DNA of 61,360 nucleotides from NCBI GenBank assembly GCA_021814565.1, contig JAKAIC010000001.1:1-61360 (forward strand), read 5' to 3'. The notes beneath the pieces are model-generated. The model saw only the letters and a program-made list of their open reading frames with translations. It was not told the origin of the DNA and did no database searches. The position numbers and the translations under genes are program-made. How positions within the stretch are numbered: the first letter of the stretch is position 1; each line of letters opens with the position of its first letter. This document shows, one piece after another, positions 16,692-46,708 of the stretch. This stretch comes from Actinomycetes bacterium (GTDB taxonomy: Bacteria > Actinomycetota > Actinomycetes > S36-B12 > UBA5976).

Positions 16692-18079
16692 CGCAATAGA
16701 GCCAGCCACCTATCAAGGTGCTTTGGCAGGTTGTCACCAGCAAGCGGTGTGGGACCGGACGCAATCTTCTGCACCATGGTTCGCGCATCGTTGACCATGC
16801 GTTGCGCGGCGAGGCGCGGCCTGCGGCTCGCCAGCACGCTCGATAGTGCCGCGGTGGCTATGAGGTAATGCTGGCCAGCTACCTCTTTGTTCCAGCCTGC
16901 CGATGTCGGAGCGCTCAAAGGCAGTCGTCTGCAGAAATCGCAACTGCACAACGCATAGGAAGGCTCCCCCATCATTGTGAGATGTGCAGCATGTTCCACC
17001 GTATGGAGAACGGATGATTCGAAGTATCGGACACGTGGTGGGCGCCAATTCTGCCGAGTCGATCCGAATCGGGGTTGATCCGCGTACGCCTGTTCGCTCC
17101 ACCCGATTCCAGTTGAGAAGCCGGTGGCTCCAATAGCGCTCATCACCCATCCCGTAAGACCCGAGTTCGGGAGAATAAGGTTCTTGCCTTCCAGCGCAGC
17201 GGTCGAACAAAGCTCCTTGTACCCGTCGAGCACCTTGGGGTCGACAAGTTGCCCGAACCTTGGTGCAGTCAACGGCCAGCGAAAGCGCAAGTACCACAGT
17301 GACTCACTGGATTCGACGAGTTCGTGTAGCAGGACGTTGCGAAGAGTCGGGTTGGTGAGCCATACGTGATCGAACGTAAGATTGACAAACATTGGCTCGT
17401 CGGGCGCTTGGCTGCGACTGGCTGATACCCATCTCATTGCATGCTGCATCGCCCTTTGCGGAGCTGCATTGTCCACCCAGCCCGTAGCGGACACGAGGGC
17501 GGTAGCTCCCGCGTTACGTTGGACTCTTAGCACTTCCGTCACCCAGGCCGGATCCGTAGGCGAGTCCTGCGCCGGGGCATTGACGAACCAAGGCGAGCGC
17601 CTCCCGGCGCGAGGTCCAAGCGTCTTCGCATCTGGACACTGCGACCGCTCCGCCCTGAAGAGTTCAGGATCCGCCAACAGAAGCCTGTTCGTTGTGAACT
17701 GGCGAAGGAACTGTGTTCGCGCATCCAATCCGGCATTCAGCAATGGAAGTACCGCCCCGATGCCGACTTGACCTCTCGTCGCACGATCGGCCGCAGGAAG
17801 AGTGTCCGCGAAGTGTTGAGAAAGGCGGGCACCTCGCACGAACAAGACGACAGGTACATCACCATCGAGCTGTTTGCTCAATGACGGCCCACCAGTCCGT
17901 ACCGATTCGTCCGGCGGGGTCGTCACCTCGCCGGTTTCCAAGTTGACAATGCGGCCGTCTTCGAGGATCTCAGTGCGACTTTGGTCTGAGCCAGGACCGG
18001 TTTGTGGCTCGATGTGCTGCTGCGTGGACGCGAGATCCCCGTCCATGGGAACGAGGCGATCAGTCGGGTTGCGCGCCAT
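16688..18079 (-). CDS. Hypothetical protein with a TGT/DpdA-like zinc motif (CxCxxC-x20-H)
   Basis: 463 aa. C-terminal ALCSCDFCRRLPLSAPTSAGWNKEVAGQH. No other motif recognised. Alternative start Met at 18046. Confidence 0.5.
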   Translation of the reverse strand: MARNPTDRLVPMDGDLASTQQHIEPQTGPGSDQSRTEILEDGRIVNLETGEVTTPPDESVRTGGPSLSKQLDGDVPVVLFVRGARLSQHFADTLPAADRATRGQVGIGAVLPLLNAGLDARTQFLRQFTTNRLLLADPELFRAERSQCPDAKTLGPRAGRRSPWFVNAPAQDSPTDPAWVTEVLRVQRNAGATALVSATGWVDNAAPQRAMQHAMRWVSASRSQAPDEPMFVNLTFDHVWLTNPTLRNVLLHELVESSESLWYLRFRWPLTAPRFGQLVDPKVLDGYKELCSTAALEGKNLILPNSGLTGWVMSAIGATGFSTGIGWSEQAYADQPRFGSTRQNWRPPRVRYFESSVLHTVEHAAHLTMMGEPSYALCSCDFCRRLPLSAPTSAGWNKEVAGQHYLIATAALSSVLASRRPRLAAQRMVNDARTMVQKIASGPTPLAGDNLPKHLDRWLALLR

Positions 18080-19022
18080 CTCTCTCTTCCATTTCTCGAA
18101 GTGCCCGGCGGGCGGAACCCCGTTCGTGTGGTTCGAAGCTCAGGAGACGCCATACCAAGACTTGCAGGTGTGCTGGCACCTGAACAGGCATGGCGCGGGG
18201 CCCAGATTCGATTCTCTTGAGGAGCTCCTCTGGGAGCACCTGCGCTTCGGAGGCATCGAGGAAGGGGTGTTCGTGCGCGAGCACGAGGTGCGCCACCGCA
18301 CCCGCGGCCCAGACGTCCGCCTGTTTACGACTGCTCTCTCCACGAAGTTGCTCCGGTGCCATGAACGGCACCGTGCCCTTTAGCGTGGGATAAACGGTCA
18401 GCGTCTCAACGTCCAGTTGCTTCGCTAGACCAAGGTCTAGAAGAACCGGCTGGGACCACGCATCGCGACGAAGAGCGATGTTTGCTGGCTTGATGTCCCG
18501 ATGAACTGTCTCTGTCGCGTGCAGAGCTGCAACGGCGCCGAGCAGGGATCGGACAAAGTGCTCGGCGTCGATCAGGGATGGCCAGTCTCCCGAGTCGAGG
18601 TGCCTAGCGACGTCGCGGCCATCCACGTACTCAAACTCGAGTGCCGGCCTGTCCCCTCTGGACAATGTGACGATTGTGCAATCAAGCAAGCGAACGACAC
18701 GTGGATCGGAGACTCTTCGCAGACCGGCGATCTCTCGATCGAGAATCTGTTGCGGATATGCGGAGTGCAGGATGAACTTCACTGCGCTCACGGAATCATG
18801 TCCGCGTTCGACTCGCCAAGTCTCTCCATAGCTACCTCGGCCAAGAAAGGCCACGGAGGCAGCACCGGTCGCGGCAATGACCTCGGCGGCATCTAGTTCG
18901 GCAATACTTCCGTTCCACGCAGGTGCCGCCGTGTTCCCGGTTGTCAAGTGGTCCTCGTTCCTGCTGACCTCTCGAAATACCAACCTCCGCGCTCTAGATG
19001 GGTCGGACCAGCCGAGAACCAA
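18060..19022 (-). CDS. Soluble Hanks-type Ser/Thr protein kinase
   Basis: GRGSYGETW glycine loop, AVKF lysine, HRDIKPANI catalytic loop, DLGLAK, MAPE. No TM or sensor domain. Confidence 0.85.
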   Translation of the reverse strand: MVLGWSDPSRARRLVFREVSRNEDHLTTGNTAAPAWNGSIAELDAAEVIAATGAASVAFLGRGSYGETWRVERGHDSVSAVKFILHSAYPQQILDREIAGLRRVSDPRVVRLLDCTIVTLSRGDRPALEFEYVDGRDVARHLDSGDWPSLIDAEHFVRSLLGAVAALHATETVHRDIKPANIALRRDAWSQPVLLDLGLAKQLDVETLTVYPTLKGTVPFMAPEQLRGESSRKQADVWAAGAVAHLVLAHEHPFLDASEAQVLPEELLKRIESGPRAMPVQVPAHLQVLVWRLLSFEPHERGSARRALREMEERDGAQPD

Positions 19023-19049: not shown

Positions 19050-19733
19050 TCACTCATCGCTTCGCAGCTCGTTCGGTTGCGCGATGTCTTCATCGGGAGG
19101 CGCTTGGCCTGGCGCCGGTGGGAGTTGCAGGCCACGAGCGATTCGCCACTGGTAGTAGCGCTCCCTGACGAACTCTTCCGCTTCAGTCCAATTGACGGCA
19201 CGAGGTGCCGTCACCTGCTCCGAGACATTCGACGGGTTTGTGAAGCAAAGTACGTCTACACCGTGTGCCTGTAGCCGCGCAATGTTGCCGGCTGAATCTT
19301 CGACGAAGACGTCGGCTCGCACGGCTGCCTTGTCTTCGATCAGGCAGAGGTCTCGGTACGGAATTCCGTGCAGTTCCAGCCAGCGAATGGTCTGGCTCGC
19401 AGCGGGTTCGTGAAAGTACGGGATAAACAGGCGATGTGTGGCAATCCTGATATGAACGCCCTCTGCGCTCAAGCGGCGTAGCGCTTGCGGCGCACCAGCG
19501 ACCGGCTGCATCTTCGCAAAGAGATCGCGCTGCGTGACCGCAAATCGGTGCAAGCGTCGGTACTGAACCATGTCCAGATCCCATTCAGGGAACCCGTATC
19601 GAGGCGATGGGTGCAACGTCTCTATCGGCTGGCCGGACCACTCGGCGAACACTTCGCGCATGCTTTGCAAGAAGTCTGCGACACAACCGTCGAGATCCAG
19701 TCCAAGAACGAACTTGTCAAACTTGTCGGCCAC
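19050..19733 (-). CDS. 5'(3')-deoxyribonucleotidase-like HAD protein (NT5C family-like)
   Basis: Motif I LDLDGCVADF, IATHR, VFVEDSAGN. GTG start at 19733 preceded by GGAAGGGGG. The tracked ORF extends to 19865. Confidence 0.6.
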   Translation of the reverse strand: MADKFDKFVLGLDLDGCVADFLQSMREVFAEWSGQPIETLHPSPRYGFPEWDLDMVQYRRLHRFAVTQRDLFAKMQPVAGAPQALRRLSAEGVHIRIATHRLFIPYFHEPAASQTIRWLELHGIPYRDLCLIEDKAAVRADVFVEDSAGNIARLQAHGVDVLCFTNPSNVSEQVTAPRAVNWTEAEEFVRERYYQWRIARGLQLPPAPGQAPPDEDIAQPNELRSDE

Positions 19734-19859
19734 ATCGGCCCCCTTCCGATACGACAACGCTAGACCTGCTTCGCAGTGCTTGGGCTGCGTGACGCGTCTG
19801 CGTATGAGCGTGTTGCGCTCATGGTGCGAATGAGACATCCATCTCGGAGGCCGAACCCC

Positions 19860-20006
19860 ATGCAAGACCTATCATTGACAGTAACCGAAGTCCCGTGCGC
19901 TGGGTGCGGGGAGTTGATTCCTGTACAGCACTTCGCGCACGCACGGCATACGGAGTTTGCGCCTAGGTACCACCTCGAATGCGCAATCTCAGAGGCGCAG
20001 AACTGA
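19860..20006 (+). CDS. Possible 48-aa CxxC/His-rich mini-protein
   Basis: MQDLSLTVTEVPCAGCGELIPVQHFAHARHTEFAPRYHLECAISEAQN. GGAGG lies 9 nt upstream of the ATG. No homology evidence. Confidence 0.25.
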   Translation: MQDLSLTVTEVPCAGCGELIPVQHFAHARHTEFAPRYHLECAISEAQN

Positions 20007-20173: not shown

Positions 20174-20728
20174 CTACGAGTGGTTCAACGCCTGTTTAGC
20201 TACCCCTGTAGTGCTGTAGCGGAACCTCGCCATTTCAACGGTTACGTCGTAGTCGTTGGCGATCTGTTCGACGCTGGCGCGACGTCGAGCGGCGCTGAGG
20301 AGGAGAGGGCGCGGGAGGAGGAGAGTGCCGCCGAATGCGGTTGCTTCCTCTTCTTCGTCCGGTCTACATGTCCGGAACGGCATGCCATCGAGTTCCTTGA
20401 TCTCAGACAGGTCATGCTTGAGCATCACATGCGAAAGTTCGTGCGCTAGGTCGCTGTTCTGGCGCCCCACGCTTCGCAGCGGGCTGACCACGATGATCTT
20501 GCGATTCTGGATCTCAAACGTTGCGGCGGAAAAGGAGAACGACTGAAGGCGTTCGAGTTCCTCGAGTTCAGACATGGTCACGAGGTCGGCGGCGTCGACG
20601 ATAGCGAGGCCAAGGTGGCGTGCTAACTCGCGTGGGTCGAGACGGTCATGCGGGGCGAGGCCCAGTTCTCTTCGCACTCGCGCCGCTTCACGTTCAGCTT
20701 CCGCCTTGAACCCGCGCCGTAGCGTCAC
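20174..20728 (-). CDS. ImmA/IrrE-family zinc metallopeptidase (CapP-like)
   Basis: 184 aa. HExxH in AHELSHVMLKH. Start overlaps the stop of the upstream XRE gene. Confidence 0.8.
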   Translation of the reverse strand: MTLRRGFKAEAEREAARVRRELGLAPHDRLDPRELARHLGLAIVDAADLVTMSELEELERLQSFSFSAATFEIQNRKIIVVSPLRSVGRQNSDLAHELSHVMLKHDLSEIKELDGMPFRTCRPDEEEEATAFGGTLLLPRPLLLSAARRRASVEQIANDYDVTVEMARFRYSTTGVAKQALNHS

Positions 20729-21225
20729 AATTCCCCAGCGGCGACGCGAGCGGCCAATTTCTCGTGCATCTCGACGAGCAGACTATTGAGGCGATGTGGG
20801 ACGCCCGGGCGGAGGACCGATGCCGCTCGAAGGTGGCAGGCCACCACCTGCCTTTGCGTCGGGGCCTTCGCCAGTCCGTCGTACATGCTTCGGAGGAAAT
20901 CGGCGATCTTCCTTGCCGCCTCAGGTTCGAGCCGCGGGTCTGATGCGAGATGGGCGATTGCCTCGTCGATGGGCGTCACCTCGCGCACAGTGACTGGAGT
21001 GAAGAACTCGCCCGGGGACACCCCAAGCCACGCGCAGAGCAGCGTGAACGACGTGAGGTCTGGTTGAGCGCCGGCTTCAATCCGGGTGAACGTGCTGAAA
21101 CTGACGCCCGCATCTTCGGCCGCCTTACGGAGCGACAACTTCCCTCGACGCTCCCGAAGGAGGGCACCGAGTTGGGCAATATCGAGCCGCTCCACACGGT
21201 CAGGGGCGCTGGAGGCGGAAGTCAC
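20725..21225 (-). CDS. XRE-family helix-turn-helix regulator (CapH-like)
   Basis: LGALLRERRGKLSLRKAAEDAGVSFSTFTRIEAG is a canonical Cro/C1 HTH. Co-operonic with ImmA and divergent from the ubiquitin-like operon. Confidence 0.8.
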   Translation of the reverse strand: MTSASSAPDRVERLDIAQLGALLRERRGKLSLRKAAEDAGVSFSTFTRIEAGAQPDLTSFTLLCAWLGVSPGEFFTPVTVREVTPIDEAIAHLASDPRLEPEAARKIADFLRSMYDGLAKAPTQRQVVACHLRAASVLRPGVPHRLNSLLVEMHEKLAARVAAGEL

Positions 21226-21300
21226 GCTGCCTCCGCACGACTGCTGGACCCGAAATCGACTGGTTCCATGCGCCGGAGTGTAGCGCCGAATTGGCGCTCT

Positions 21301-21324
21301 GGTGACACGACACGACGTGTCACC
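21301..21324. promoter_or_regulatory. Candidate operator: 9-bp inverted repeat GGTGACACG-N6-CGTGTCACC
   Basis: Perfect 9-bp arms in the 175-bp divergent intergenic region between the XRE gene and the Mub gene. Confidence 0.45.
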
Positions 21325-21345
21325 AACTCAGCAATGACGCTTTGC

Positions 21346-21354
21346 TGATACAAT
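21346..21354 (+). promoter_or_regulatory. Candidate extended -10 element TGATACAAT
   Basis: TGn-TACAAT about 47 nt upstream of the Mub ATG. AGGAG lies 6 nt before ATG 21401. Confidence 0.3.
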
Positions 21355-21400
21355 TTCTGTGGTGTCCGAACCGCGGAGCCGAGCCTTTTAGGAGCCACAA

Positions 21401-21643
21401 ATGCATGATGCGAACAATGCTTCACCAATCAACTTCACGATCGACGGTCAGAGTTTCACGACCGACGATGCCACGCAATCACCCGCCTCGCTCTTGGCGT
21501 TCGTGGGGTTCGACACCGCCTCCTACGACCTCATGCAGATGTTGCCCGACGGCAAGCCGCGCAAGTTCCAAGAAGGCCAGACAGTGCACATCGAGAATGG
21601 CGAGGAATTCTTGACGGTGCGCAAGGAAGCGTCGGTGGCCTGA
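21401..21643 (+). CDS. Multiubiquitin (Mub)-type beta-grasp domain protein
   Basis: 80 aa. INFTIDGQSFTTDD...QTVHIENGEEFLTV pattern and its position upstream of Prok-E2 and E1-JAB genes. Stop overlaps the next start. Confidence 0.6.
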   Translation: MHDANNASPINFTIDGQSFTTDDATQSPASLLAFVGFDTASYDLMQMLPDGKPRKFQEGQTVHIENGEEFLTVRKEASVA

Positions 21644-22020
21644 TGAGCGAGCGTCCGCCGCGTGACGGAGTCGATGGCTTCATCGCCGACCTCGCAGACT
21701 TCAACATCGCCGCGTTCATCGATGGACCTGTCGTGCGCTACTCGGTGACACCGATCGATGGGTCTATGAGCGGATCCGCCGTGGAGACCGCCGTGGGAAT
21801 CGTCGAACTCGCTCCGTGGCCCGCTGCACCTCCGCACTGGATCCATCTTCCAGCGCACTTCACGTTTGCGCACACGAACACCCAACCCCAGGGCTCGCTG
21901 CTCGGCTGGCTCTGCCACTCGCGCAACATCACATCGTGGACGCCAAGCGCTCACCCTGGCCGGCAATGGCTTGCGCATGTCCGCACTGTTCTCGGTCAGA
22001 TCACTGGAACGGCGGCCTGA
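21643..22020 (+). CDS. Prokaryotic E2-like protein (Prok-E2_E-like)
   Basis: 125 aa. PPHWIHLP motif and candidate Cys in GWLCHSR. Gene order Mub-E2-JAB/E1. Confidence 0.55.
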   Translation: MSERPPRDGVDGFIADLADFNIAAFIDGPVVRYSVTPIDGSMSGSAVETAVGIVELAPWPAAPPHWIHLPAHFTFAHTNTQPQGSLLGWLCHSRNITSWTPSAHPGRQWLAHVRTVLGQITGTAA

Positions 22021-22021
22021 T

Positions 22022-23494
22022 ATGCGTCACAGCGTTGCCATGTCAGTGCAAGTCGACGCGGCCCTCCGGGAGCACCTTGATCGACCAGATGGTCAAGAGG
22101 ACATCTGTCTTGCGACCTACTCGGTATCCACGGGCCGAACGCGTATTTCCCGCCTCATAACCCAGGTCGAACTCCCCGCGACAGGCGAACGTCGCGTCCA
22201 CGGAAACGCGACGATCACCGGGGACTACGTGCTTCGGGTCGCGGCCGTGGCCGCCGCCCGAGAAGAAGGCCTCGTCATTCTCCATTCACACCCCGGTGGT
22301 CACGGCTGGCAGGAACTCAGCGGCCCCGACCACGACGCCGAGCGTTCCTACTCGCACCTCGTGCAGCGCATCACTGGACTCCCGCTAGTGGGAATGACCT
22401 ACTCGGGTGGCGACCAGGCATGGTCGGCCCGCGAATGGGTCATCGGATCTCCCATCTGGCACGAGAGTGTCCGTGTCGTCGGGAACACACTGCGCATCAC
22501 CTGGAACGACACGCAACGGCGGCCACCGGCAACGACGGTCGAGCAGATCCGCACCGTCTCTGCTTGGGGCGAACAACTGCAGCAGGACATTGCCCGGATG
22601 CGCGTCCTTGTTGTCGGCGTCGGCAGCGTCGGACTCGATGTGGCCATTCGCCTCGCGGCCACCGGCATCCAACACATCGGCGTCATGGACTACGACACTG
22701 TCGAGCCGCTGAACCGTGACCGCATGATCGGAGCAACGCGCAAGGATGCGCGACGCAAGACTCCAAAGGTCGAGGTGGCGGACCGGCTTATGACGACCGC
22801 TGCAACCGCCCGATGCCCTGAGATCGCGCTCCATTACCTCAGCATCTGCTCGCCGGAGGGCTTGGCCACCGCGCTCGACTACGACGTCATCTTCTCCTGC
22901 GTCGACCGTCCGTGGCCTCGGGCAGTCATGAACACCCTTGGCTACTCAGACCTGATCCCTGTCATTGATGGCGGTATCAACATCGACACATTCCCCAACG
23001 GATGCATGCAAGGGGCAAGTTGGCGTGTACAGGCCGTAGCACCCGGTGTCCCTTGTCTGTCGTGCTCCGGGCAGATAAACATGCCGCAGGTTGCCCTAGA
23101 CCGGGCTGGGCTACTCGATGACGCGAACTACATCTCACAAGCCGGCCTCCATTCACCCGCAAGTCAGAATGTCGCGCTGCTCTCCGCAAGTGTGAGCGCT
23201 GCACAGCTCGCGCAATTCGTCACGCTCACTGTCTCGCCAGGCGGTCGCGGTGTGTACTCGCCGCTGCGGTACATCCTTGCGGCGCACCACCAAGAACACC
23301 TCGATGGCATCAGCCAGCCCGGCTGTCGCTTCGAACATCGACCTGGCGAAGGCGACAAGCGGAGCGAATTCGTTAGCAACACCGGTCCTTGGATCGACGC
23401 AATGGCAGCACGCACACGCAAGCGGCGCAACTTCGCGTTGCCGTGCGCACTCGCCCGGTTCGTCGCCAGTGCACGCATCACGGACCGCAAGTAA
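22022..23494 (+). CDS. JAB/JAMM deubiquitinase-like domain fused to ThiF/E1-like adenylation domain
   Basis: EEGLVILHSHPGGHGWQELSGPD (E...HxH...SxxD) followed by Rossmann VLVVGVGSVGLDVA...VMDYDTVEPLNRDR and PCLSCSG. ATG at 22022 lies 2 nt after the E2 stop. Confidence 0.75.
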   Translation: MRHSVAMSVQVDAALREHLDRPDGQEDICLATYSVSTGRTRISRLITQVELPATGERRVHGNATITGDYVLRVAAVAAAREEGLVILHSHPGGHGWQELSGPDHDAERSYSHLVQRITGLPLVGMTYSGGDQAWSAREWVIGSPIWHESVRVVGNTLRITWNDTQRRPPATTVEQIRTVSAWGEQLQQDIARMRVLVVGVGSVGLDVAIRLAATGIQHIGVMDYDTVEPLNRDRMIGATRKDARRKTPKVEVADRLMTTAATARCPEIALHYLSICSPEGLATALDYDVIFSCVDRPWPRAVMNTLGYSDLIPVIDGGINIDTFPNGCMQGASWRVQAVAPGVPCLSCSGQINMPQVALDRAGLLDDANYISQAGLHSPASQNVALLSASVSAAQLAQFVTLTVSPGGRGVYSPLRYILAAHHQEHLDGISQPGCRFEHRPGEGDKRSEFVSNTGPWIDAMAARTRKRRNFALPCALARFVASARITDRK

Positions 23495-23496
23495 TC

Positions 23497-23616
23497 ATGC
23501 GCACGGAAATCGAAGCGAATAATCGAGCTGATCGCAAGTCGCGGGAGCGGCAGCTGAAGTCGATGCAAATGAACAGCTCGACCATTGCACCGCAACCTTC
23601 TGGAGGTCACCCATGA
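23497..23616 (+). CDS. Possible 39-aa mini-ORF wedged between the E1-JAB gene and the next gene
   Basis: ATG lies 2 nt after the E1 stop. Its stop overlaps the next start in ATGA. Peptide MRTEIEANNRADRKSRERQLKSMQMNSSTIAPQPSGGHP. No SD. Confidence 0.25.
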   Translation: MRTEIEANNRADRKSRERQLKSMQMNSSTIAPQPSGGHP

Positions 23617-23855
23617 CGGACGTGTTGGTCGAAATCGGCAACATACTTCTGGAACAATCGAGCAGGCTGCCCCGCGTCATGAAGGACAGCATCGTCGTCG
23701 GGTTTCTACTCCTTGCGGTCATCGCCCCACAGGCGCTACGTCATGTCGTTGACGCCTGGGTGCATCTGGAGACGCAGACGATCATGCATCGCCTGCAACC
23801 GCTGCTTGAGGCGGCCGCCGGCGCGGCCACAACGGCCACTACCACTCACGCTTGA
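23613..23855 (+). CDS. Small single-pass membrane protein
   Basis: 80 aa. GGAGG lies 9 nt upstream of the ATG. Hydrophobic IVVGFLLLAVIAP. Last gene of the same-strand run. Confidence 0.45.
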   Translation: MTDVLVEIGNILLEQSSRLPRVMKDSIVVGFLLLAVIAPQALRHVVDAWVHLETQTIMHRLQPLLEAAAGAATTATTTHA

Positions 23856-24102
23856 GTGAATGCTGCTGACAGCCGGACCGCCAGAATCTTGCGCTCATGT
23901 TCTGCCGCTGCATCCATGCGTTAGTGCTGCAACGACATGGCGACTTGATTGACGTGGTGGGAGGCTACGCGCCCGCACCTTCGAAAGTCTGGCAGGCTCT
24001 GCGTGCGAATTCCTTGGACGCGCGCCATCGAGCCCTCAGCGAGTTTGCTCCTCAGTGTCTTCTGCCGGCATTCGCCCACCAGTCATGCGGCCGCCACGAG
24101 AA

Positions 24103-25338
24103 TCAGTTCTGGCGCAGGACGGTTCCGCTGGGCCCCGCGGTCTCACAGTCGGGACTGGCGCAGTCGACGCCATGGCTGCCGGACAACGCGATCAATATGA
24201 CGCAGACAAGCAGGATGAGACCGCCCACGCTTGCCAAGCTGGCAACTTCGTTGGTGTGCGCAACCATGACCGCGGCGAGCACTGGGCCGACCGGTCCGAT
24301 TGCATACGATCCAAGCGCGTCGATCGCGAAAACGCGGGAAAGCTCTTGCGACGGTATCGATCGTTGAAGCACGGTCACCCACAGGACTCCGAAGACCTCA
24401 ATGCCCGCACCTGTGAGGAGTGCAGCCACTAAGACTTGCGAAATGCTTCCGACCGCGAGCGCAAGTGGCTCGAGGGCGATGAGGCTCGCGTATTGGAGAG
24501 CGCGAAGAAGCGGCTTGGTGGGATCGAGCCTAAGCGCAAGCGCCGCACCGAGCACTGAACCAACCCCGGTTGCAGCCGATACGCTGCCCCACACTTCCGC
24601 CCCGCCAAGGTGCGTCACGGCTTGCATGGGTCCCAGTACGTTGATGCACGCGAGGAATGCAGCGTTGATCAGGGCAAACCCCGCCACCGTTTGCAGCAAC
24701 CATGGTCTAGAGACAACGGCTTTCACGCCTTGCTTTGCTGCTTGTCGCCAAGACTCCTGCGCTTCCGCCACTTGCGGAATCTCGCGCAATCCCATCCGGC
24801 TCACTGCACCAAAAAGGCAACTAACTCCGACAAACGTCAGGATCGCGGAGCCGTAGCGCCCGGCCAACCAAGCTCCCAGGAACGCCCCGCCGATCTGCGC
24901 TACATTGGCGATAATGCGACGGATACTGTTCGCTGACTGAATCTTTGCGGCGTCCACGACTTGCGTGAGAATGCCTTGGCTTGCGGGCAGGTAGAAGCCG
25001 AGCCCAACCCCTCGCAGCGCGGTGAACGCCGCCACCGGAAGTAGCTGCAAAGGTGCCCTCTCGAAAGTGACACTCAAACTGAAGGCTGCCGCTGCCTGCA
25101 TCAAGTCTGCCAGCAGCATCACGTCACGCCTGGACCTACGATCGGCGATCAACCCGCCAAAGACCAGCGCCAGGACCTGCGCCGCCAGGAGCGCTACCGA
25201 CACGACCGCCAGGTCCGCACCGCTGCCACGGGCCGAAAGGATGAGCACCGGCGTTGCTGTCGTCGCGGCGGCGCCAGCCAGCAACGTCGCAGCGTCACTC
25301 GCGCAGAGCCATACGAAGCGTCGACCCAACCGGTTCAT
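24103..25338 (-). CDS. MFS transporter
   Basis: 411 aa with ~12 hydrophobic segments. GGLIADRRSRRD loop motif typical of MFS. Confidence 0.8.
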   Translation of the reverse strand: MNRLGRRFVWLCASDAATLLAGAAATTATPVLILSARGSGADLAVVSVALLAAQVLALVFGGLIADRRSRRDVMLLADLMQAAAAFSLSVTFERAPLQLLPVAAFTALRGVGLGFYLPASQGILTQVVDAAKIQSANSIRRIIANVAQIGGAFLGAWLAGRYGSAILTFVGVSCLFGAVSRMGLREIPQVAEAQESWRQAAKQGVKAVVSRPWLLQTVAGFALINAAFLACINVLGPMQAVTHLGGAEVWGSVSAATGVGSVLGAALALRLDPTKPLLRALQYASLIALEPLALAVGSISQVLVAALLTGAGIEVFGVLWVTVLQRSIPSQELSRVFAIDALGSYAIGPVGPVLAAVMVAHTNEVASLASVGGLILLVCVILIALSGSHGVDCASPDCETAGPSGTVLRQN

Positions 25339-25937
25339 GAAGGTCGGTTGGATGCTCGTTTGCCGCTGCTTGCGGCACTCTTCGCTGCGGACGGTGTCTT
25401 CGAGCTACCGGGATCTGGAGAAGTTTGTACCTCGGCGCTGCTGAACATCATAACCGTCGAACTCACGTGAACAACTCCCGAGGCAGACTTGTCGGTGGCG
25501 GCCTTGTGCAAGCGCTCCAACGCCTTGGCTACCGCTCGAGCGCATTGAATCCATGCGTCCTCGCTCACCCATAGCTCCGCATCGCTGAAGAGGTCCCAAG
25601 AGTCTGGCTTTGCCGCCAACAGGCGGCGACGGACCTCGGCGGAAGCTGCTGCTGCGCTCGAAGGCAGATCGACGGCAGCACCATCAGCGAAGTCGCCCGC
25701 GGTTCGATACAGCCGCTCCTGGCCACCGCGCACGCTGCGCACGTCCACCAACTCGATCAAACCAGCCGCAGCCAATTGACGAACGTGGAAACTGACCGCG
25801 GCCTGAGACTTTCCGAGTTCGCGTCCCAGTTCAGTTGCCGATCTCGGGGCGCCCGTGAGCATGGAAAGGATCCGCAAGCGCACGGGATGCGAGAGCGCAC
25901 GGAGGTGCTGGCGTTCAGCATCATCCACCAAAGACAT
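25335..25937 (-). CDS. ArsR-family winged-helix regulator with C-terminal extension
   Basis: LRALSHPVRLRILSML...ATELGRELGKSQAAVSFHVRQLAAAGLI. 4-nt overlap with the MFS gene. Confidence 0.8.
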   Translation of the reverse strand: MSLVDDAERQHLRALSHPVRLRILSMLTGAPRSATELGRELGKSQAAVSFHVRQLAAAGLIELVDVRSVRGGQERLYRTAGDFADGAAVDLPSSAAAASAEVRRRLLAAKPDSWDLFSDAELWVSEDAWIQCARAVAKALERLHKAATDKSASGVVHVSSTVMMFSSAEVQTSPDPGSSKTPSAAKSAASSGKRASNRPS

Positions 25938-26216
25938 GTTTTGGAGCCTCCCACTGGAGACGCGGACACGTCAAGGAATGCATGTTGCACGCTCTTCGCG
26001 CTGAATCTCTGCGGAGCACCAATCGGTGCACCAGAAGTCTGCACGGCGGGCCCGAGCCCGCCCTACCGAGTGCGTCGCTGCAGCCGCTAGAAGTGCGTGC
26101 GACAGACCCGGGCGAGGCGACCACAAAAGGAGTGCTTGACGGTAGCGTCGGCATGATGCAGCATCCGCACAAGAGTTGCTTTGCAGTTGAGTGCTTGGCG
26201 CAACGGGGGGATTGCA

Positions 26217-27389
26217 GTGGTATCGCTGACTGGCGTTCGAGTACTTCCTGGTCGCTATGGCACCTGGTACACGCGGAACGGCCGTTCGATCTTGATCTCA
26301 GAAGAGGCCGATCCATTCGCTCCCAGCGGCGAAGTGCTCCAGGTGATTTCGGACGCTGGGCTTCTTGACAAGCGCGACAAGCTCTATGGGGCGACGGTCA
26401 TGCTGACATCGCGCTGCAACCTTGCCTGCGCCTACTGCTTTCAAAACGAATCTGGCGGCGAGTCAGGCATCACGAGAATCGATCGGCATGACTTGACGGC
26501 ACGCAACGTAGAGCGTGTCCGAGATTTCGTCGCAGAACAGATGCTGCGGCACGGAAAGTCGGAACTTCACTTGCTGCTGACGGGCGGAGAGCCGCTCATG
26601 AACTATGCAAACTGCCTCGAACTGCTGGACGCGATGGCGCCTCTTGGAGCCGTCCAAGCCGAAATGTTTACAAATGGAGTCTTGCTCAGCAAGGATCGTG
26701 CCGTCGCGCTTTCGCAAGCTGGGCTCACACGCATCCAGGTGTCGTTTGACGGTGCAGGCGACGAACACGATCGGTACCGCAAGACGCCGGCCGGCGTCGG
26801 CTCCTACGCGCGCATCATGCAGAACCTGGTGAACACGCTTGACGCCGCACCGAATCTCAAGGTGACCATGCGCCTAAACATCACCGCTCGCAACGTTCCG
26901 ACGCTTGATCAACTTCTCCTTGCGCTGAGCGAAGTTGCTGCCGGACGGAAGTTGGCCATTCGATTCGGCCTCGTTGATGACATTGGGCTCAACTTCGTCG
27001 ACGCGCCTGATCGAAGCGCAACGACAGCAGAACAAATTCGAGACCTCGCACTAATCGCAATGGAACTTGGCCTGGACGTGGAGCCGATGGCTGCCCCCGG
27101 AGACTGCCTGTTCTGTGGCGTCATCGGAGGCGGTTCCGGGTCTGTCATCAACGCCGACGGAACGCTGTACAGCTGTTGGGAGAGTGTCGGTCGGACCGAA
27201 CTCGCCGTTGGCGATGTGACACGGGGCTATCTAGCCGGCAATGACTTGACCGAACGATGGGTGGACTGCTCATACAACATCGTTGACAGGAACGCGGCTA
27301 CCAAGTCTGCCAGGCAGATCAGTGACGTTGTGGACACGGCGGTTCTTGATCGTTCGTTTGAGCTGCTCAACGTAGGGAGTGCAAGTTGA
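26217..27389 (+). CDS. Radical SAM enzyme with C-terminal auxiliary Cys cluster (SPASM/twitch-like)
   Basis: CNLACAYC (Cx3Cx2C), GGEPL, and C-terminal DCLFCG...GTLYSCWE...VDCS. GTG 26217 is preceded by GGGGGG. The tracked ORF starts at TTG 26181. Confidence 0.8.
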   Translation: MVSLTGVRVLPGRYGTWYTRNGRSILISEEADPFAPSGEVLQVISDAGLLDKRDKLYGATVMLTSRCNLACAYCFQNESGGESGITRIDRHDLTARNVERVRDFVAEQMLRHGKSELHLLLTGGEPLMNYANCLELLDAMAPLGAVQAEMFTNGVLLSKDRAVALSQAGLTRIQVSFDGAGDEHDRYRKTPAGVGSYARIMQNLVNTLDAAPNLKVTMRLNITARNVPTLDQLLLALSEVAAGRKLAIRFGLVDDIGLNFVDAPDRSATTAEQIRDLALIAMELGLDVEPMAAPGDCLFCGVIGGGSGSVINADGTLYSCWESVGRTELAVGDVTRGYLAGNDLTERWVDCSYNIVDRNAATKSARQISDVVDTAVLDRSFELLNVGSAS

Positions 27390-28165
27390 GCGTCACCGAC
27401 TATGGCGTATGGGGGACGCTCAACGACGCGCTCGCTGGGCCTGCAGAACCGGAATTCGTTGAATACTTCAACTCACTTCTGCAGCCGAATGCCCGTGTAT
27501 TCGAGGTGGGCATTGGATCCGGTCGACTGGCATTGCCGCTGGCCAAGTCGGGCTTCAGAGTGTCGGGCATCGACACCAGTCAGCGCATGCTGCAACTCCT
27601 CGCCGAAAACGACCCCGATCAACTCATTAGTTATTCCACGGGAGACATCACAGAAGACCGGAACTTCGGCCGCTTCGATGCCGTATTGCTTGCCTACAAC
27701 GTCCTCTCGATGCTACCAAACAGAGAAGCGCAAGAGCGCGGCCTGCGCAACGCCTGCAGGCACTTGGCATCCAACGGCTTCCTCATCATCGAGAACGTGA
27801 CTCCGCACGCCATCACCTCCCAGTTGAATGAACGACGCCAAGCGATTGGCGTTCAATTTCACGACGATGAACTCTGGCTGAACCTGAGCCGCTATTACCC
27901 GGAAGAGCAGCGCTACAAAGCGCGATTCCTCGCCCTCGAGACCGGCGGCTTCGTCGAGCGTTCTGGCGATCTCACCCTCATCGAAGCAACGACAGTTTGC
28001 GACCTTGTCACGAGTCAAGGCCTGGACCTCATTCGCCAAGCGGACAGTTGGGCGGGGCATCAATTCTCCAACGACAGCGCCAGTTACATCCTGACCTTCC
28101 AGCGATGCGCCGATGCCACAGGCGGCAGTAAGAAGCCGGCTCCTACTTCGCGACAGGGGAGGTGA
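27386..28165 (+). CDS. Class I SAM-dependent methyltransferase
   Basis: VFEVGIGSGRLALPLA (motif I), GIDTS, AVLLAYNV. Start overlaps the rSAM stop. Confidence 0.8.
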   Translation: MSVTDYGVWGTLNDALAGPAEPEFVEYFNSLLQPNARVFEVGIGSGRLALPLAKSGFRVSGIDTSQRMLQLLAENDPDQLISYSTGDITEDRNFGRFDAVLLAYNVLSMLPNREAQERGLRNACRHLASNGFLIIENVTPHAITSQLNERRQAIGVQFHDDELWLNLSRYYPEEQRYKARFLALETGGFVERSGDLTLIEATTVCDLVTSQGLDLIRQADSWAGHQFSNDSASYILTFQRCADATGGSKKPAPTSRQGR

Positions 28166-28170
28166 ATCAA

Positions 28171-28227
28171 ATGGTGAAGGCAATTCTCATTCAGTCAGAG
28201 CCCATCATCGTGTGCGTCGTGCACTAG
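28171..28227 (+). CDS. Unannotated 18-aa ORF MVKAILIQSEPIIVCVVH (candidate RiPP precursor)
   Basis: GGGGAGG lies 7 nt upstream of the ATG and 5 nt after the methyltransferase stop. Followed 12 nt later by an 11-bp perfect GC hairpin. Too short for the ORF track. Confidence 0.4.
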   Translation: MVKAILIQSEPIIVCVVH

Positions 28228-28239
28228 GGATCTCGCACG

Positions 28240-28269
28240 GGTGGGGGCGCGATCTCAAGCGCCCCCACC
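28240..28269 (+). terminator. Strong GC hairpin GGTGGGGGCGC-N8-GCGCCCCCACC
   Basis: 11-bp perfect stem and 8-nt loop immediately after the 18-aa ORF. Confidence 0.6.
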
Positions 28270-28455
28270 GCGCGCTCGAATTCCTGGGACGCCCTTGAGA
28301 TGTGTAGACCCACCGTTCGACGAGATTCCTCTCCGCGACGAGCCGACCCGGATCGGCCCGGCAGGGCAACTCGTGCGGACGTTGTTGGACGGAACCGAAC
28401 TCCACCCAGACGTGCCTGATCAAGTCGACCAAGCACATGAGACAGACGGAGACTT

Positions 28456-29133
28456 ATGAAGACATCAAGACCTGCGTTACTGAGCGCGCTCGCCCTCACC
28501 GCACTAGTGATTGCCACCGGCGGATTCACGAGTGGCGCCACCGCAACTGAGCGATTGGCCACTTCGGCAGGGGGATCCACGGCAGCCAGCGGTTCGAGGC
28601 CTGTGTACGTTGTAGCCATTCATGGGCCGGGCGTTGTGCACCAGGCCGACGGCACCGCCTTCTACCCGACAGGCAAGTTAGCGGCGGGGACGATCATGGT
28701 TATCCCAAATGAGGACGGCACGCTTCCCGGCGGGATGTCAATCTCAGAAATTGCGCGTCGAGCCAACAGTTCTACAACAATGGCGGCTGCGTCATCATGC
28801 CTCGGCGGAACGTATCTGACCACACTGAACACATGGACGAGTGTCCAAACGGCAACGAATTGTGTCGTCATCGGATCGTCCACGGGCACAGTGAGCTACT
28901 GGTTCGGGATTGCCCCCGGAACCAACGGGTCAGCTTTAGGCCAAGGTCTTGGGTACTACCAGGGCTACAACGGATCGACATTCGGCATTTGGGCGAAGTG
29001 GTACGGACTTGGCATGGCTTCCGATGGTTTGCCGGGAGGCGCAACATTGCCATGGGTGAACGTTGCGGCGAACCCAAAGTTCATGGCAATGGGTATGTCA
29101 ATCGTCCCGGCAATGGGCAACTGGGGCGTGTAG
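28456..29133 (+). CDS. Secreted protein of unknown function
   Basis: 225 aa. Signal peptide MKTSRPALLSALALTALVIATGGFTSGATA. Gly/Thr/Ser-rich mature part. Confidence 0.6.
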   Translation: MKTSRPALLSALALTALVIATGGFTSGATATERLATSAGGSTAASGSRPVYVVAIHGPGVVHQADGTAFYPTGKLAAGTIMVIPNEDGTLPGGMSISEIARRANSSTTMAAASSCLGGTYLTTLNTWTSVQTATNCVVIGSSTGTVSYWFGIAPGTNGSALGQGLGYYQGYNGSTFGIWAKWYGLGMASDGLPGGATLPWVNVAANPKFMAMGMSIVPAMGNWGV

Positions 29134-29273
29134 AGCGCAGCGGCGTGGCGGGCTCGCTGATCCATCGGCTGGCCCGTCACGTCTCGCCTGCTCGTTCATT
29201 GCTCGCTGACCGGTTGATTGCGCAGCCAGCGCAGCTGAGCACAATACTTTCGACTGGACCGAGGGGCGTGTAC

Positions 29274-29777
29274 GTGTTGAGGAGACTGAGACAGCATTCA
29301 TGTTCGCAGAACGTCCTTGGGCCTGCCTCGATTCTATTGGCGCTGGCGCTCACTTCCGGCTGCGGGACTGTTCAGAAGTCGGCGTCGCCAAACGAAATGA
29401 CGGCGCTACGCTTGGTGGTAGCTGAATGCTCGACCATAAGCAGCGCGAGCAGTGAACTTGCGACGGATGTTGGACTCCCCGAGGCAATCGAACGTGATCG
29501 GCGACTTCGGCAGTTTGCTGCCTCGCTGAATTCCGCTTCAGCCACGGTGAAGATGGTGGAGCAGAGGATGCCCGCTGGTGTAGCCAGGAGCAACGTCGAA
29601 GCTGTGGCGGGGGCACTCAAGCGGTTTTCGAGTCGCACGGCCTCGTACGTCGATGCTGTGCCGGCGGCAACAACTCAAACCGACCCCCGCACGCTCCATG
29701 CGTTTGCAGAGCTACTCTCAGCAAACGCAGAGTTCGCAACCGCGTGCGCCCGCCTGGTGGATCCGCGCATCAAGTAG
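29274..29777 (+). CDS. Putative lipoprotein
   Basis: Lipobox LALTSGC after a basic n-region. GAGGGG lies 7 nt upstream of GTG 29274. The upstream part of tracked ORF 28797..29777 overlaps the previous gene out of frame. Confidence 0.5.
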   Translation: MLRRLRQHSCSQNVLGPASILLALALTSGCGTVQKSASPNEMTALRLVVAECSTISSASSELATDVGLPEAIERDRRLRQFAASLNSASATVKMVEQRMPAGVARSNVEAVAGALKRFSSRTASYVDAVPAATTQTDPRTLHAFAELLSANAEFATACARLVDPRIK

Positions 29778-30055
29778 ATCGACCGTGGTCGAGGCGTCAC
29801 GCCGATCGCCGCGGAAAACGGCTTCAGGCATGAATCCCACGGGCTCGGACCATTCCTGGCGGAGATGACTTCGACCCTCTTCGCGACCGACTCTTCGAGC
29901 GGCCACAGATTCTGATTGTGATGGAGCGCCTTGCAACCGCTCCCGCGATGTTGAGGAGCAGAGTCCGAGAATCTGAGTAGCAGTCACTCGTCGGCCACGC
30001 GGCCGCGACTCTCGGAACACCAATCGATTTCGACTAGCTGCGAAGCAGACGGCTT

Positions 30056-30761: not shown

Positions 30762-31079
30762 GTGGGGCTGCGGCCCTGCTGGAAGGAGCCCAAGATGCCG
30801 AGGGCGTATCCGCAAGAGTTCAAGGACGATGTCGTTCGGATCGTGCTTTCCGGCGAGGTAACGATGGCGCAGGCGGCACGCGATTTCGGAGTGTCCGAGA
30901 CGTGCGTGTCGAACTGGGTTCGCAAGGCCCAGGTCGAAGCCGGGCAGCGGCCTGGCGTGACGGCCAAGGAGTCGACGGAGCTGAAGGAGGCGCGCAAGCG
31001 GATCCGGATCCTGGAGCAGGAAAACGAGATCCTGCGGAGGGCGGCGATCTATCTGGGTCGGGGAACGCTCCCAAAATGA
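30762..31079 (+). CDS. IS3-family OrfA (HTH plus leucine zipper)
   Basis: MPRAYPQEFKDDVVRIV...AARDFGVSETCVSNWVRK...ELKEARKRIRILEQENEILRRA. Confidence 0.85.
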   Translation: MGLRPCWKEPKMPRAYPQEFKDDVVRIVLSGEVTMAQAARDFGVSETCVSNWVRKAQVEAGQRPGVTAKESTELKEARKRIRILEQENEILRRAAIYLGRGTLPK

Positions 31080-31942
31080 TCTACCCCTTGGTGACGGAGC
31101 TGGCTGCCAAGGGGATCCCGATCGCCCGGTCGTGCAAGGTGTTGGGCTTCTCCAAGCAGGCGTTCTATGCGTGGAAGGCGGCGCCGGTGAGTCAGCGCGA
31201 TTGGGATGACGCGCACCTCATCAACGCCGCCCGCGATGTCCATGCCGACGATCCGACGTTCGGTTACCGGTTCATCCATGACGAACTCGAACTCACCCAC
31301 GGGCACTCGGTGGGACGTAACCGCATCCACCGGTTGTGTCGGCAGGAAGGTCTCGGCTCGGTCATCGTCAAGGGCCGCGGCAAGGGCAAGCGTCCAGGCC
31401 CTGCCGTGCATGACGATCTCGTGCAACGCCAGTTCGGTGCCGAACGCATCGACCGGCTTTGGTACGTCGACATCAGCGAGCACCCGACCTTCGAGGGCAA
31501 GCTGTATCTGTGCGCCATCAAGGACGCAGCATCCGCGCGGATCGTGGGCTATTCCATGGATTCCCGTATGACTGCCGATCTCGCCTGCAATGCGCTGCGT
31601 CACGCGATCCTGCGACGGCGACCCATCGGCACCATCGTCCACTCGGACCGTGGCAGCCAGTTCGGTGCCAAGAAGTTCCGCACCATCCTCACCGAACACG
31701 GGCTTCGCGGCTCCATGGGACGTGTCGGTGCGGCAGGCGACAACGCGGCCATGGAATCGTTCTTCGCGCTGCTGCAAAAGAACGTCCTCAACCGCCGCCA
31801 ATGGCAGACCCGAGACCAATTGCGGATGGCGATCTGCACCTGGATCGAACGCGACTACCACCGTCGCCGCCGGCAGGCTGGCCTGGGACGACTCACCCCC
31901 GTCGAATACGAGACAATCACCACCGCAGCATTAGCTGCCTAG
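31076..31942 (+). CDS. IS3-family OrfB (DDE integrase core), probably made as an OrfAB fusion
   Basis: WYVDISEH (D), HSDRGSQF (D), DNAAMESFF (E). The frame is open from 30902. Slippery C CCA AAA at 31070..31076. Confidence 0.85.
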   Translation: MIYPLVTELAAKGIPIARSCKVLGFSKQAFYAWKAAPVSQRDWDDAHLINAARDVHADDPTFGYRFIHDELELTHGHSVGRNRIHRLCRQEGLGSVIVKGRGKGKRPGPAVHDDLVQRQFGAERIDRLWYVDISEHPTFEGKLYLCAIKDAASARIVGYSMDSRMTADLACNALRHAILRRRPIGTIVHSDRGSQFGAKKFRTILTEHGLRGSMGRVGAAGDNAAMESFFALLQKNVLNRRQWQTRDQLRMAICTWIERDYHRRRRQAGLGRLTPVEYETITTAALAA

Positions 31943-36216: not shown

Positions 36217-36306
36217 TGGCGGTGACGGTGGGATTTGAACCCACGGTGAGCTTTCACCCACACACGCTTTCGAGGCGTGCTCCTTAGGCCACTCGGACAC
36301 ATCACC
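36217..36306 (-). tRNA. tRNA-Ser (anticodon CGA), CCA encoded
   Basis: Reverse complement folds as acceptor GGTGATG/CGTCACC, anticodon stem CACGC/GCGTG with loop CTCGAAA, a long variable arm, and T-arm GTGGG-TTCAAAT-CCCAC. Confidence 0.9.
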
Positions 36307-36352
36307 GCGGCGAACAATAGCGGAGGAGGCTGCAGCCGAAGAATCCGCTGCC

Positions 36353-36907: not shown

Positions 36908-36958
36908 GTAAGACACGGCGACCTCCACTGGCTCCAACACGGTCCCGGCGGACCGCAG

Positions 36959-37046
36959 TGGCGGAGGATGCGGGATTCGAACCCGCGAGGCGTTTCCACC
37001 AACACGCTTTCCAAGCGTGCGCACTAGGCCACTATGCGAATCCTCC
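36959..37046 (-). tRNA. tRNA-Ser (anticodon GGA), CCA encoded
   Basis: Acceptor GGAGGAT/ATCCTCC, anticodon loop TTGGAAA, long variable arm, T-arm GCGGG-TTCGAAT-CCCGC. Confidence 0.9.
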
Positions 37047-37127
37047 GCGGCGAAGGTTACTGGGCCGGGCGTTGACGCCGAAATCCTGCGCCGGGCGGCC
37101 AAGCCGGTGTGCCGCCTACAATTGCGC

Positions 37128-37220: not shown

Positions 37221-37283
37221 CCGTCGCTCCACGCGCCACGGCAGGAAGTGCCGCTGTCGGCCCCGACGACTACCCTCGGGCAC

Positions 37284-39889: not shown

Positions 39890-42216
<2,327 letters not shown>

Positions 42217-46631: not shown

Positions 46632-46708
<77 letters not shown>

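Follow-up and report, generated by a model that had tools for sequence, protein, structure and literature searches.

What does a locus make when it encodes little more than a radical S-adenosylmethionine (SAM) enzyme, a methyltransferase and an open reading frame (ORF) of 18 codons? The question is raised by a compact gene set in a 61,360-nucleotide stretch of DNA from an Actinomycetes bacterium (GenBank assembly GCA_021814565.1, contig JAKAIC010000001.1, positions 1 to 61,360), referred to here as the window. An earlier note on this sequence had proposed a small cluster for a peptide that is ribosomally synthesized and then post-translationally modified (RiPP), with a divergent regulator-exporter pair alongside. 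Comparison with related loci supported that proposal: the short ORF was found in all eight homologous loci that could be inspected, the radical SAM enzyme grouped with peptide maturases, and its more distant relatives lie in RiPP clusters. The locus is probably a compact biosynthetic operon for a RiPP.

An 18-codon gene conserved with the radical SAM-methyltransferase pair

Relatives of the radical SAM enzyme were collected with a word-indexed protein search, which returned approximately 21 family members, 14 of them (44 to 100% identity) forming a close clade. The DNA of nine distinct close-clade loci was compared, together with a tenth contig as a gene list only. A divergent ArsR-type gene and an overlapping radical SAM-methyltransferase pair were present in all nine DNA loci and in the tenth contig, with the methyltransferase directly 3′ of the radical SAM gene in all 10 (47 to 72% identity). 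The transporter of the major facilitator superfamily (MFS), which the earlier note had counted as part of the cluster, was present in the window but adjoined the regulator gene in only 6/10 close-clade loci, and a 225-residue secreted protein encoded downstream in the window was kept in 2/9. The constant core is therefore the regulator gene divergent from radical SAM, methyltransferase and peptide genes, while the surrounding genes vary each time. A metagenome scan for further close-clade loci gave, among the matches listed, distant relatives only, and the plasmid collection held no close copy of the island.

The small ORF was analyzed in the eight close-clade loci with sequence past the methyltransferase gene (radical SAM enzymes 44 to 66% identical to that of the window). 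It was found 3′ of the methyltransferase gene in 8/8, always with 18 codons and at a fixed stop position, so that the earlier note's proposed check, whether homologous pairs keep a short ORF, had a positive outcome. The predicted peptides are MVKAILIQSEPIIVCVVH in the window and MIKTILIESEPIIVCVVH, MVKAIVITEEPVIVCVVH, MVKAVIQRKKPVLVCGVH, MIKAVIRRKKPVILCGVR, VVKAVIRRKKPVILCGVR (with a GTG start), MIKAIIRRNKPLIICGVH and MIKAIVVRRKPVIVCGVH elsewhere. Residues K3, P11, C15 and V17 are invariant among them, and the C-termini read CGVH, CGVR or CVVH. Mean pairwise nucleotide identity was 0.685 within the ORF versus 0.29 to 0.34 in flanks of equal size. Pairwise differences at codon positions 1, 2 and 3 were 0.34, 0.17 and 0.50, respectively, and thus highest at the third position; the invariant Pro11 and Val17 are each encoded by three synonymous codons and Ala4 by four. 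Each of the eight orthologous ORFs has a GGAGG-type ribosome-binding site before it and a hairpin (-24 to -39 kcal/mol) after it. As judged from this coding-type variation, the predicted 18-residue product is shown to be a conserved, protein-coding partner of the radical SAM-methyltransferase pair. Because the genes past the hairpin differ in every locus, the ORF does not serve a downstream gene as its leader.

A putative Cys-containing precursor encoded next to the maturase, as in sactipeptide and ranthipeptide systems, was thus found in every case, with Cys15 invariant in 8/8 loci. The window holds no second copy of the peptide gene, and no small ORF in the intergenic region between the regulator and radical SAM genes was conserved across loci. 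None of the gene calls for the related contigs returned the 18-codon gene.

The radical SAM enzyme and its wider family

The radical SAM enzyme described in the earlier note was readily recognized. PF04055 matched with 54.6 bits (cut-off 29.5; E-value 2e-14), and the CNLACAYC signature lies within RCNLACAYCFQ, its C67-NLA-C71-AY-C74 motif being invariant in 19 family members. The auxiliary Cys cluster of SPASM/twitch type claimed for the C-terminus held up in part. Four Cys residues are conserved there (C297, C300, C320 and C351), and C300-X14-G315-X4-C320 corresponds to the first half of the SPASM/twitch motif, but the CX2CX5CX3C block that makes up the other half of SPASM is absent, and PF13186 matched neither the window protein nor any close relative. 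Because of these two absences, the C-terminus is probably twitch-like, with one auxiliary cluster and no full SPASM domain. Unlike the seven-Cys SPASM maturases, the window enzyme has a single four-Cys motif, closer to the twitch domain of SkfB. The NCBIfam (release 20) twitch model NF033640 gave 55 bits against a cut-off of 170, and SkfB and MoaA were among the matches of the structure searches.

The best NCBIfam models were CefB (104 bits), geopeptide (92), PapB (91) and TIGR04463 (91), all of which are, by model name, maturases of Cys-rich or Cys-cross-linked peptides. None came near its cut-off (600 for CefB and 340 for PapB), and the SCIFF model reached 64 bits against 425; the enzyme is related to the characterized thioether-forming families but is a member of no curated one. 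A search of the PDB with a family profile placed CteB first (E-value 3e-20), followed by ChlB, TigE (8vpo), MoaA, SkfB and the anaerobic sulfatase maturase anSME. An AlphaFold2 model (pLDDT 87.8, pTM 0.87) returned CteB, anSME, ChlB and SkfB as the top Foldseek matches. Ahead of the barrel, the model has a small N-terminal unit of three strands (residues 8 to 11, 16 to 20 and 23 to 27) and one helix (38 to 46), compared with the three strands and three helices of a RiPP recognition element (RRE); no PqqD/RRE Pfam model matched. Together, the sequence profiles and the predicted fold show that the enzyme belongs with the peptide-modifying SPASM/twitch enzymes. The earlier note had named classification with non-peptide enzymes as grounds for rejecting its proposal; instead, the enzyme grouped with CefB, geopeptide, PapB, TIGR04463, CteB and SkfB. 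The anaerobic sulfatase maturase model TIGR03942 gave 58.4 bits against a cut-off of 349, which places the enzyme outside that family, and the cluster encodes no sulfatase.

The enzyme therefore resembles CteB/SCIFF, PapB, CefB and SkfB, its best sequence and fold matches, in having a C-terminal auxiliary Fe-S domain, a small N-terminal domain of peptide-binding type and a short Cys-containing peptide encoded beside it. It differs from them in sharing only 14 to 18% identity in structural alignments and in falling far under the curated cut-offs. In comparison with the ranthipeptide and sactipeptide maturase systems, the window cluster has a truncated N-terminal enzyme domain, an 18-residue precursor with only one Cys and a putative thioether. 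StsB, an MftC-like sactisynthase, was considered as a match and set aside as a different family, its model giving 38 bits on the distant relative in L019 against a cut-off of 625.

The longest ORF for the radical SAM gene spans 26181 to 27389, and the GTG at 26217 is the start backed by the N-termini of homologues and by the gene callers. In locus L178 (2896-4578, P0009), the close-clade enzyme was called at 560 residues, with an N-terminal extension of approximately 170 residues that a second ArsR-like frame overlaps; this extension probably reflects a misplaced start and not a fusion.

When species-representative genomes were scanned by pattern, more than 526 relatives of the enzyme were recovered. 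The best 80 of these share 31 to 39% identity with it and come nearly all from Streptomyces, Kitasatospora, Micromonosporaceae and other actinomycetes. A profile search against 1.84 billion representatives gave 1,444 matches at an E-value of ≤1e-30; approximately 135 representatives (clusters at 50% identity) scored above about 190 bits, after which the scores dropped. Small ORFs upstream of the distant radical SAM genes fell into two recurring types, short peptides and long multicore precursors. The short type, of 18 to 29 residues, includes MKIEIFETTERVVCGINL from the cultured Catellatospora sp. KI3, MKVEIYTTESRVVCGINL from a metagenome, MTRVRIEVLDVEDRVICNVYG, MGNMEIDVYEMEDEARDVCGVKG from Frigoribacterium and MQIEVFERASEAGAVVCGAYGGR, as well as MSGITIYVEETDVFCGIQS, encoded by three identical tandem 19-codon genes on the Streptomyces viridifaciens plasmid pKVP1 (CP090840.1; L180 5444-5771). 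Each pKVP1 copy has its own GGGGAGGGG ribosome-binding site, and none of the three genes is annotated; they lie within a 569-bp gap that separates the radical SAM homologue from an HTH-MFS-glycosyltransferase operon.

The long precursors contain two or three repeats of the form ...PEVVAHSASSVAWCGVHQE..., with the variants WCVVNSG, WCVINTG and ICGVYDK. The repeat pattern E-V-[VI]-A-H-(7-9 aa)-W-C-[GV]-[VI]-[HN] was observed at L179 5604-5867 (a plasmid of Streptomyces sp. NBC_00184) and in L052, L054, L056, L058-L062, L064, L065, L073, L079 and L082. These precursor genes lie upstream of radical SAM-MFS-S9 prolyl oligopeptidase genes, in some cases followed by a glycosyltransferase gene, and often with a P450, a second radical SAM enzyme and a SARP/NB-ARC regulator. 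The set looks like a multicore RiPP family, of which no description was found.

With a stringent peptide motif, matches upstream of the radical SAM gene were found on the same strand in 32/88 loci and on the opposite strand in 0/88. Cys was the only invariant residue in an alignment of the short peptides with those of the window clade. A common layout was apparent: an alternating hydrophobic five-residue motif (e.g., K-A-I-L-I, K-I-E-I-F or E-V-V-A-H), a linker of approximately seven residues, then Φ-Cys-Gly/Val-Val/Ile and one to four more residues. By these sequence criteria, the wider radical SAM family is shown to be linked to small Cys-containing peptides.

The clusters around the distant relatives (31 to 40% identity) are of RiPP type. 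One combines precursor, radical SAM, MFS, S9 prolyl oligopeptidase and glycosyltransferase genes with a P450 and a SARP regulator. A hybrid type (L094 7549-13068; L016 and L019), which lacks the S9 peptidase, encodes one or more peptides (e.g., MKAMRIEVFDSAVTAGGSVCYGYCVLFGG), the radical SAM enzyme, an MFS protein, a B12-binding radical SAM enzyme (640 residues) and a DUF5825 protein, the last two being the pair shown to C-methylate clavusporins (bioRxiv 10.1101/2024.01.23.576971). In a further type, HTH-MFS-glycosyltransferase genes face three peptide genes and the radical SAM gene. In Catellatospora sp. KI3, an HTH_20-MFS-methyltransferase set faces MKIEIFETTERVVCGINL and the radical SAM gene, that is, the five parts of the window cluster in another arrangement.

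A proposed pathway and its alternatives

The RiPP reading suggests the following pathway. Residues ~3 to 7 of the peptide (K-A-I-L-I) would act as a minimal leader by pairing with the three-stranded N-terminal domain of the radical SAM enzyme, which would bring Cys15, approximately seven residues on, to the auxiliary cluster and the active site. The enzyme might then abstract a hydrogen and form a thioether from Cys15 to a nearby carbon, as in sactipeptides or ranthipeptides. Since Cys thioether chemistry is what all of the nearest families perform, a thioether is the simplest guess; by this analogy, and provided that the locus is a RiPP cluster, the chance of a thioether at Cys15 is put at roughly even. 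The methyltransferase would place one or more methyl groups on an amine, at the N-terminus or on the invariant Lys3. Export of the product would fall to the MFS protein, where present, and control of both divergent operons to the ArsR-fold regulator. Since no protease is encoded, the modified 18-mer may itself be the product, in full length.

The assignment of an amine methylation follows the nearest relatives of the methyltransferase. Its best PDB matches were CcbJ (E-value 1.4e-11), YunM (5.9e-11) and CypM (2.7e-6), the last of these being the N-terminal methyltransferase of cypemycin. Among NCBIfam models, the daptide methyltransferase scored best, with 66 bits (cut-off 175). Like these enzymes, it is a class I SAM-dependent methyltransferase, and they act on amines of peptides or amino acid-derived products. 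Unlike in the CypM, YunM and daptide systems, the linaridin and daptide partner genes are absent, and the E-values are only 1e-11 to 1e-6, which leaves the protein outside the RiPP amine N-methyltransferase families. The similarity supports a predicted function like that of CypM, YunM or the daptide methyltransferase rather than membership among them.

The divergent pair of an ArsR regulator and an MFS transporter named in the earlier note is present, but the "ArsR" lacks a metal-binding Cys motif. The protein combines an HTH_20/HTH_5 domain with a C-terminal extension of approximately 120 residues, contains one Cys, outside the HTH, and reached 50.8 bits with the metalloregulator model NF033788 (cut-off 55). 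Arsenic or metal sensing was rejected on the basis of the single Cys and the score below this cut-off. A homologue of the regulator is divergent from the radical SAM gene in all close-clade loci and also in L010, L011, L017 and L180. The MFS protein matched the H+ antiporter model TIGR00900 with 120 bits, under its cut-off, and MFS genes adjoin many distant radical SAM relatives.

Several points weigh against the RiPP reading or its parts. The thioether, the site of methylation and the export step are proposed by analogy, and the radical SAM enzyme reaches no curated family threshold; it could instead catalyze epimerization, C-C cross-linking or a C-terminal reaction like that in the mycofactocin pathway. 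The auxiliary cluster may be ligated by all four C-terminal Cys residues, leaving no proven open site for a substrate Cys, and the N-terminal domain, with its three strands and one helix, is no canonical RRE. It is unusual for an 18-residue precursor to have no protease encoded in its cluster, 4/10 close relatives lack the MFS gene, and the close clade is known from just a few assemblies and metagenome contigs.

Of the alternatives, the one that survives best is still unlikely: that the genes make a very small or cofactor-like metabolite, similar to the pathways of mycofactocin or pyrroloquinoline quinone (PQQ). Here the radical SAM enzyme would modify the C-terminal Cys-Val/Gly-Val-His/Arg, a host peptidase would free the fragment, and the fragment would be methylated in the window cluster and glycosylated in relatives; the product need not be an exported bioactive peptide. 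As in mycofactocin, a radical SAM maturase is paired with a small precursor ending in Cys-Gly-Val-X. The C-terminus of the mycofactocin precursor MftA is ...CGVY, which the CGVH, CGVR and CVVH ends of the close clade resemble, as does ICGVY in the relatives L051 and L111. The related clusters also carry glycosyltransferase and methyltransferase tailoring, their S9 peptidase and glycosyltransferase parallel MftE and MftF, and 4/10 close relatives do without the MFS protein. However, the score with the MftC model TIGR03962 was 47.9 bits (cut-off 265), behind those of maturases of Cys peptides, which puts the enzyme outside the mycofactocin family, and the window encodes no mftB/D/E/F-like genes. 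Unlike MftA, the peptides end in Val-His or Val-Arg across the clade, with no C-terminal Tyr; the last residue varies (H/R in the clade and N/Y/K/Q in relatives), while conservation at the protein level extends over the whole N-terminal half. The long precursors carry the motif internally and in repeats, and MFS genes, of which the window has one, are common across the family.

Less probable still is that the radical SAM enzyme and methyltransferase act on a nonpeptide, such as an organoarsenical of the arsinothricin type or a nucleotide, and that the 18-mer is an unrelated small protein. Arsinothricin clusters contain an ArsR-controlled radical SAM enzyme, methyltransferase and permease (arsQML), a logic that the window genes match superficially, and the function of a radical SAM enzyme is not readable from sequence alone. 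Against this, the regulator has one Cys, no arsenic or metal motif and a score under the metalloregulator cut-off, and the nearest families and folds of the radical SAM enzyme are peptide maturases. The peptide also accompanies that enzyme despite a change of gene order, lying 3′ of the methyltransferase in the close clade and 5′ of the radical SAM gene in distant relatives, whose clusters hold peptidases and known RiPP tailoring pairs.

A role in anti-phage defense, with a viperin-like radical SAM enzyme making a modified nucleotide, is very improbable. It would fit the neighbors of the module, namely CBASS (L090), SIR2 (L007) and MNT/HepT (L091) genes and, in the window, a multiubiquitin/JAMM-E1 operon and an HTH/M78 pair, and the PADLOC pVip models matched the enzyme at 51 bits. 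That match, however, spans only the generic radical SAM core, so that the protein is not classed as a pVip; no PADLOC model fits the whole system beyond generic radical SAM, methyltransferase and HTH matches, and viperin structures rank 25 or lower in the structure search, behind peptide maturases. Accessory islands mix defense and secondary-metabolite cargo, and a nucleotide role would leave the conserved Cys peptide and the relatives of natural-product type unexplained.

The least likely reading, that the enzyme matures the 225-residue secreted protein in the manner of anSME or that the 18-codon ORF is a leader or attenuator, draws on the occurrence of this protein behind the operon both in L007 (64% identity) and in the window, on anSME being among the top structural neighbors and on the attenuator-like order of ORF and hairpin, but it is countered by the absence of the protein from 7/9 close-clade loci with different downstream genes in each, by an anSME model score of 58 bits against 349, by conservation of the peptide at the amino acid level with synonymous turnover and by homologous peptides upstream of the radical SAM gene in distant relatives. 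The 225-residue protein, an orphan family of six members kept in 2/9 loci, was therefore rejected as the substrate.

The clavusporin (mpc) clusters, likewise actinobacterial, are also among the closest known systems, neighboring but distinct; they contain an MFS protein, an S9 peptidase, a short hydrophobic precursor, the B12-radical SAM enzyme MpcB and the DUF5825 protein MpcC (bioRxiv 10.1101/2024.01.23.576971). Shared features are the very short Val/Ile-rich precursors, the MFS protein and tailoring by methylation, and some distant relatives of the window enzyme are encoded directly beside an MpcB/MpcC-like pair. In contrast to clavusporin clusters, the window lacks the B12-radical SAM and DUF5825 genes and would use class I methylation, and the mpc clusters as described lack this radical SAM family.

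No NCBIfam model reached its cut-off with the window enzyme, three of its distant relatives or any peptide, and NCBI labels the relatives "radical SAM protein" and their long precursor "hypothetical protein." Neither the peptide sequences nor descriptions of matching clusters turned up in a full-text literature search, many subscription papers lying outside its reach. Thus, we found no published description of the family, although radical SAM-dependent RiPPs as a kind are already known. It is a concrete candidate RiPP family with more than 500 matches in species-representative genomes and no curated model found. A wider reading, possible but doubtful, is that the window cluster represents, in minimal form, a large and as yet undescribed class of actinobacterial RiPPs, defined by a twitch-type radical SAM enzyme and a shared precursor layout. 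With 18 residues, its precursors would rank among the shortest for any known radical SAM-dependent RiPP pathway. In such a class, the reaction at Cys-X-Val might be a cross-link or C-terminal transformation new to RiPPs, or might lead to a mycofactocin-like small metabolite. The set of an 18-residue substrate, a radical SAM enzyme and a methyltransferase is suited to studies of the chemistry and of minimal leader recognition, and cultured carriers of the same peptide layout are Catellatospora sp. KI3 and S. viridifaciens (pKVP1).

Locus layout and genomic surroundings

The features of the locus are listed in Table 1. The MFS and regulator genes, on the minus strand, face the radical SAM, methyltransferase and 18-codon genes and the hairpin on the plus strand.

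Table 1. Positions of the features of the candidate RiPP operon in the window
Feature	Position	Strand	Basis or remark
MFS transporter of 411 aa; putative export or immunity pump	24103..25338	-	PF07690 (E-value 3e-22); MFS_3
ArsR/SmtB-fold winged-helix regulator, 200 aa	25335..25937	-	PF12840 (E-value 6e-16); PF01022 (E-value 3e-11)
Divergent intergenic region, 279 bp, presumed promoter/operator	25938..26216		Between regulator and radical SAM genes
Radical SAM peptide-maturase-like enzyme, 390 aa	26217..27389	+	PF04055
Class I SAM-dependent methyltransferase, 259 aa	27386..28165	+	PF13649, PF08241
Shine-Dalgarno GGAGG of the small ORF	28158..28162	+	Read from sequence; within the last methyltransferase codons
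18-codon gene, putative precursor MVKAILIQSEPIIVCVVH	28171..28227	+	Conserved in 8/8 loci
GC-rich hairpin, terminator-like, without T-tract	~28238..28272	+	Closes the operon

The MFS and regulator genes overlap by 4 nt (ATGA) and are co-operonic. The overlap of the radical SAM and methyltransferase genes reported in the earlier note was likewise confirmed as 4 nt (TTGA), shared by the stop of the former and the start of the latter, and the methyltransferase is translationally coupled to the radical SAM gene. The 18-codon ORF, also reported there, starts 5 bases past the methyltransferase stop. The "strong terminator" was borne out as a strong hairpin but lacks a T-run: a 65-nt stretch folds at -39.2 kcal/mol (z = -3.99), and 0/200 shuffled sequences fold as well. 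A scan for consensus promoters and terminators gave no sigma-70 promoter and did not call the hairpin, because it has no T-run. The divergent intergenic region contains a single imperfect inverted repeat (26038-26051/26056-26069). Rfam returned nothing credible at 23000 to 30000, the sole match being a chance selenocysteine insertion sequence (SECIS) with an E-value of 0.22.

Directly after the hairpin follows the orphan 225-residue protein (28456-29133), which has a signal peptide-like N-terminus and is rich in Gly, Ala and Thr. It had no Pfam, NCBIfam or PADLOC match, and six homologues were found among 5.8 billion proteins. In the close clade it recurs at the same place, after the peptide hairpin, in L007 (the 58%-identity locus) and in none of the other seven loci.

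The accessory island proposed in the earlier note was recovered. GC content is 0.58 to 0.63 over ~16 to 32 kb, compared with 0.64 to 0.68 in the core region, and ~1 to 36 kb is occupied by Mu-type and IS3 transposases, defense-like genes and orphan genes. This stretch ends at tRNA-Ser genes beside dnaX-recR-ask-asd, a core order like that of Mycobacteriales genomes, which supports the island assignment. The tRNA-Ser genes lie at 36217-36306 and 36959-37046, followed by dnaX, recR, ask and asd (36217-42216 in all).

Close-clade modules elsewhere also adjoin defense or toxin-antitoxin genes: CBASS in L090 (358-4891; SAVED/TIR, SMODS, ThiF and JAB), a SIR2_2 protein in L007 (121-1308) and an MNT/HepT pair in L091 (4150-4997). 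The module seems to travel in variable islands of defense type. In the window, a ubiquitin-like conjugation operon of a kind linked to phage defense occupies 20174 to 23855. An M78 peptidase gene (20174-20728, minus strand) and an HTH_31 gene (20725-21225, minus strand; weak capH match) face genes for a Multi_ubiq-like 80-residue protein (21401-21643) and a 125-residue protein (21643-22020). Next come a protein in which a JAMM motif (HSHPGGHGWQELSGPDHD) is joined to a ThiF/E1 domain (~22022-23494) and an 80-residue ORF (23613-23855). Within this accessory stretch, too, a Ser/Thr protein kinase gene (18060-19022, minus strand) adjoins one for an NT5C-type deoxyribonucleotidase (19050-19865, minus strand), and the two may be another defense-like pair.

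Mobile elements include a Mu-type transposase (3136-4752; rve and Mu-transpos_C_2) and an IS3-family element (30762-31942) with two overlapping frames (HTH_Tnp_1, 30762-31079; rve, 30902/31076-31942). In related assemblies, another Mu-type transposase gene starts approximately 0.5 kb past the IS3 element. An 89-nt "tRNA-Gly" called by ARAGORN at 13908-13996 is probably spurious, as it lies inside a 632-residue ORF. A tRNA-Pro gene (46632-46708) precedes a second accessory segment, which encodes an HTH_17 protein and an AbiEii toxin (54687-55634).

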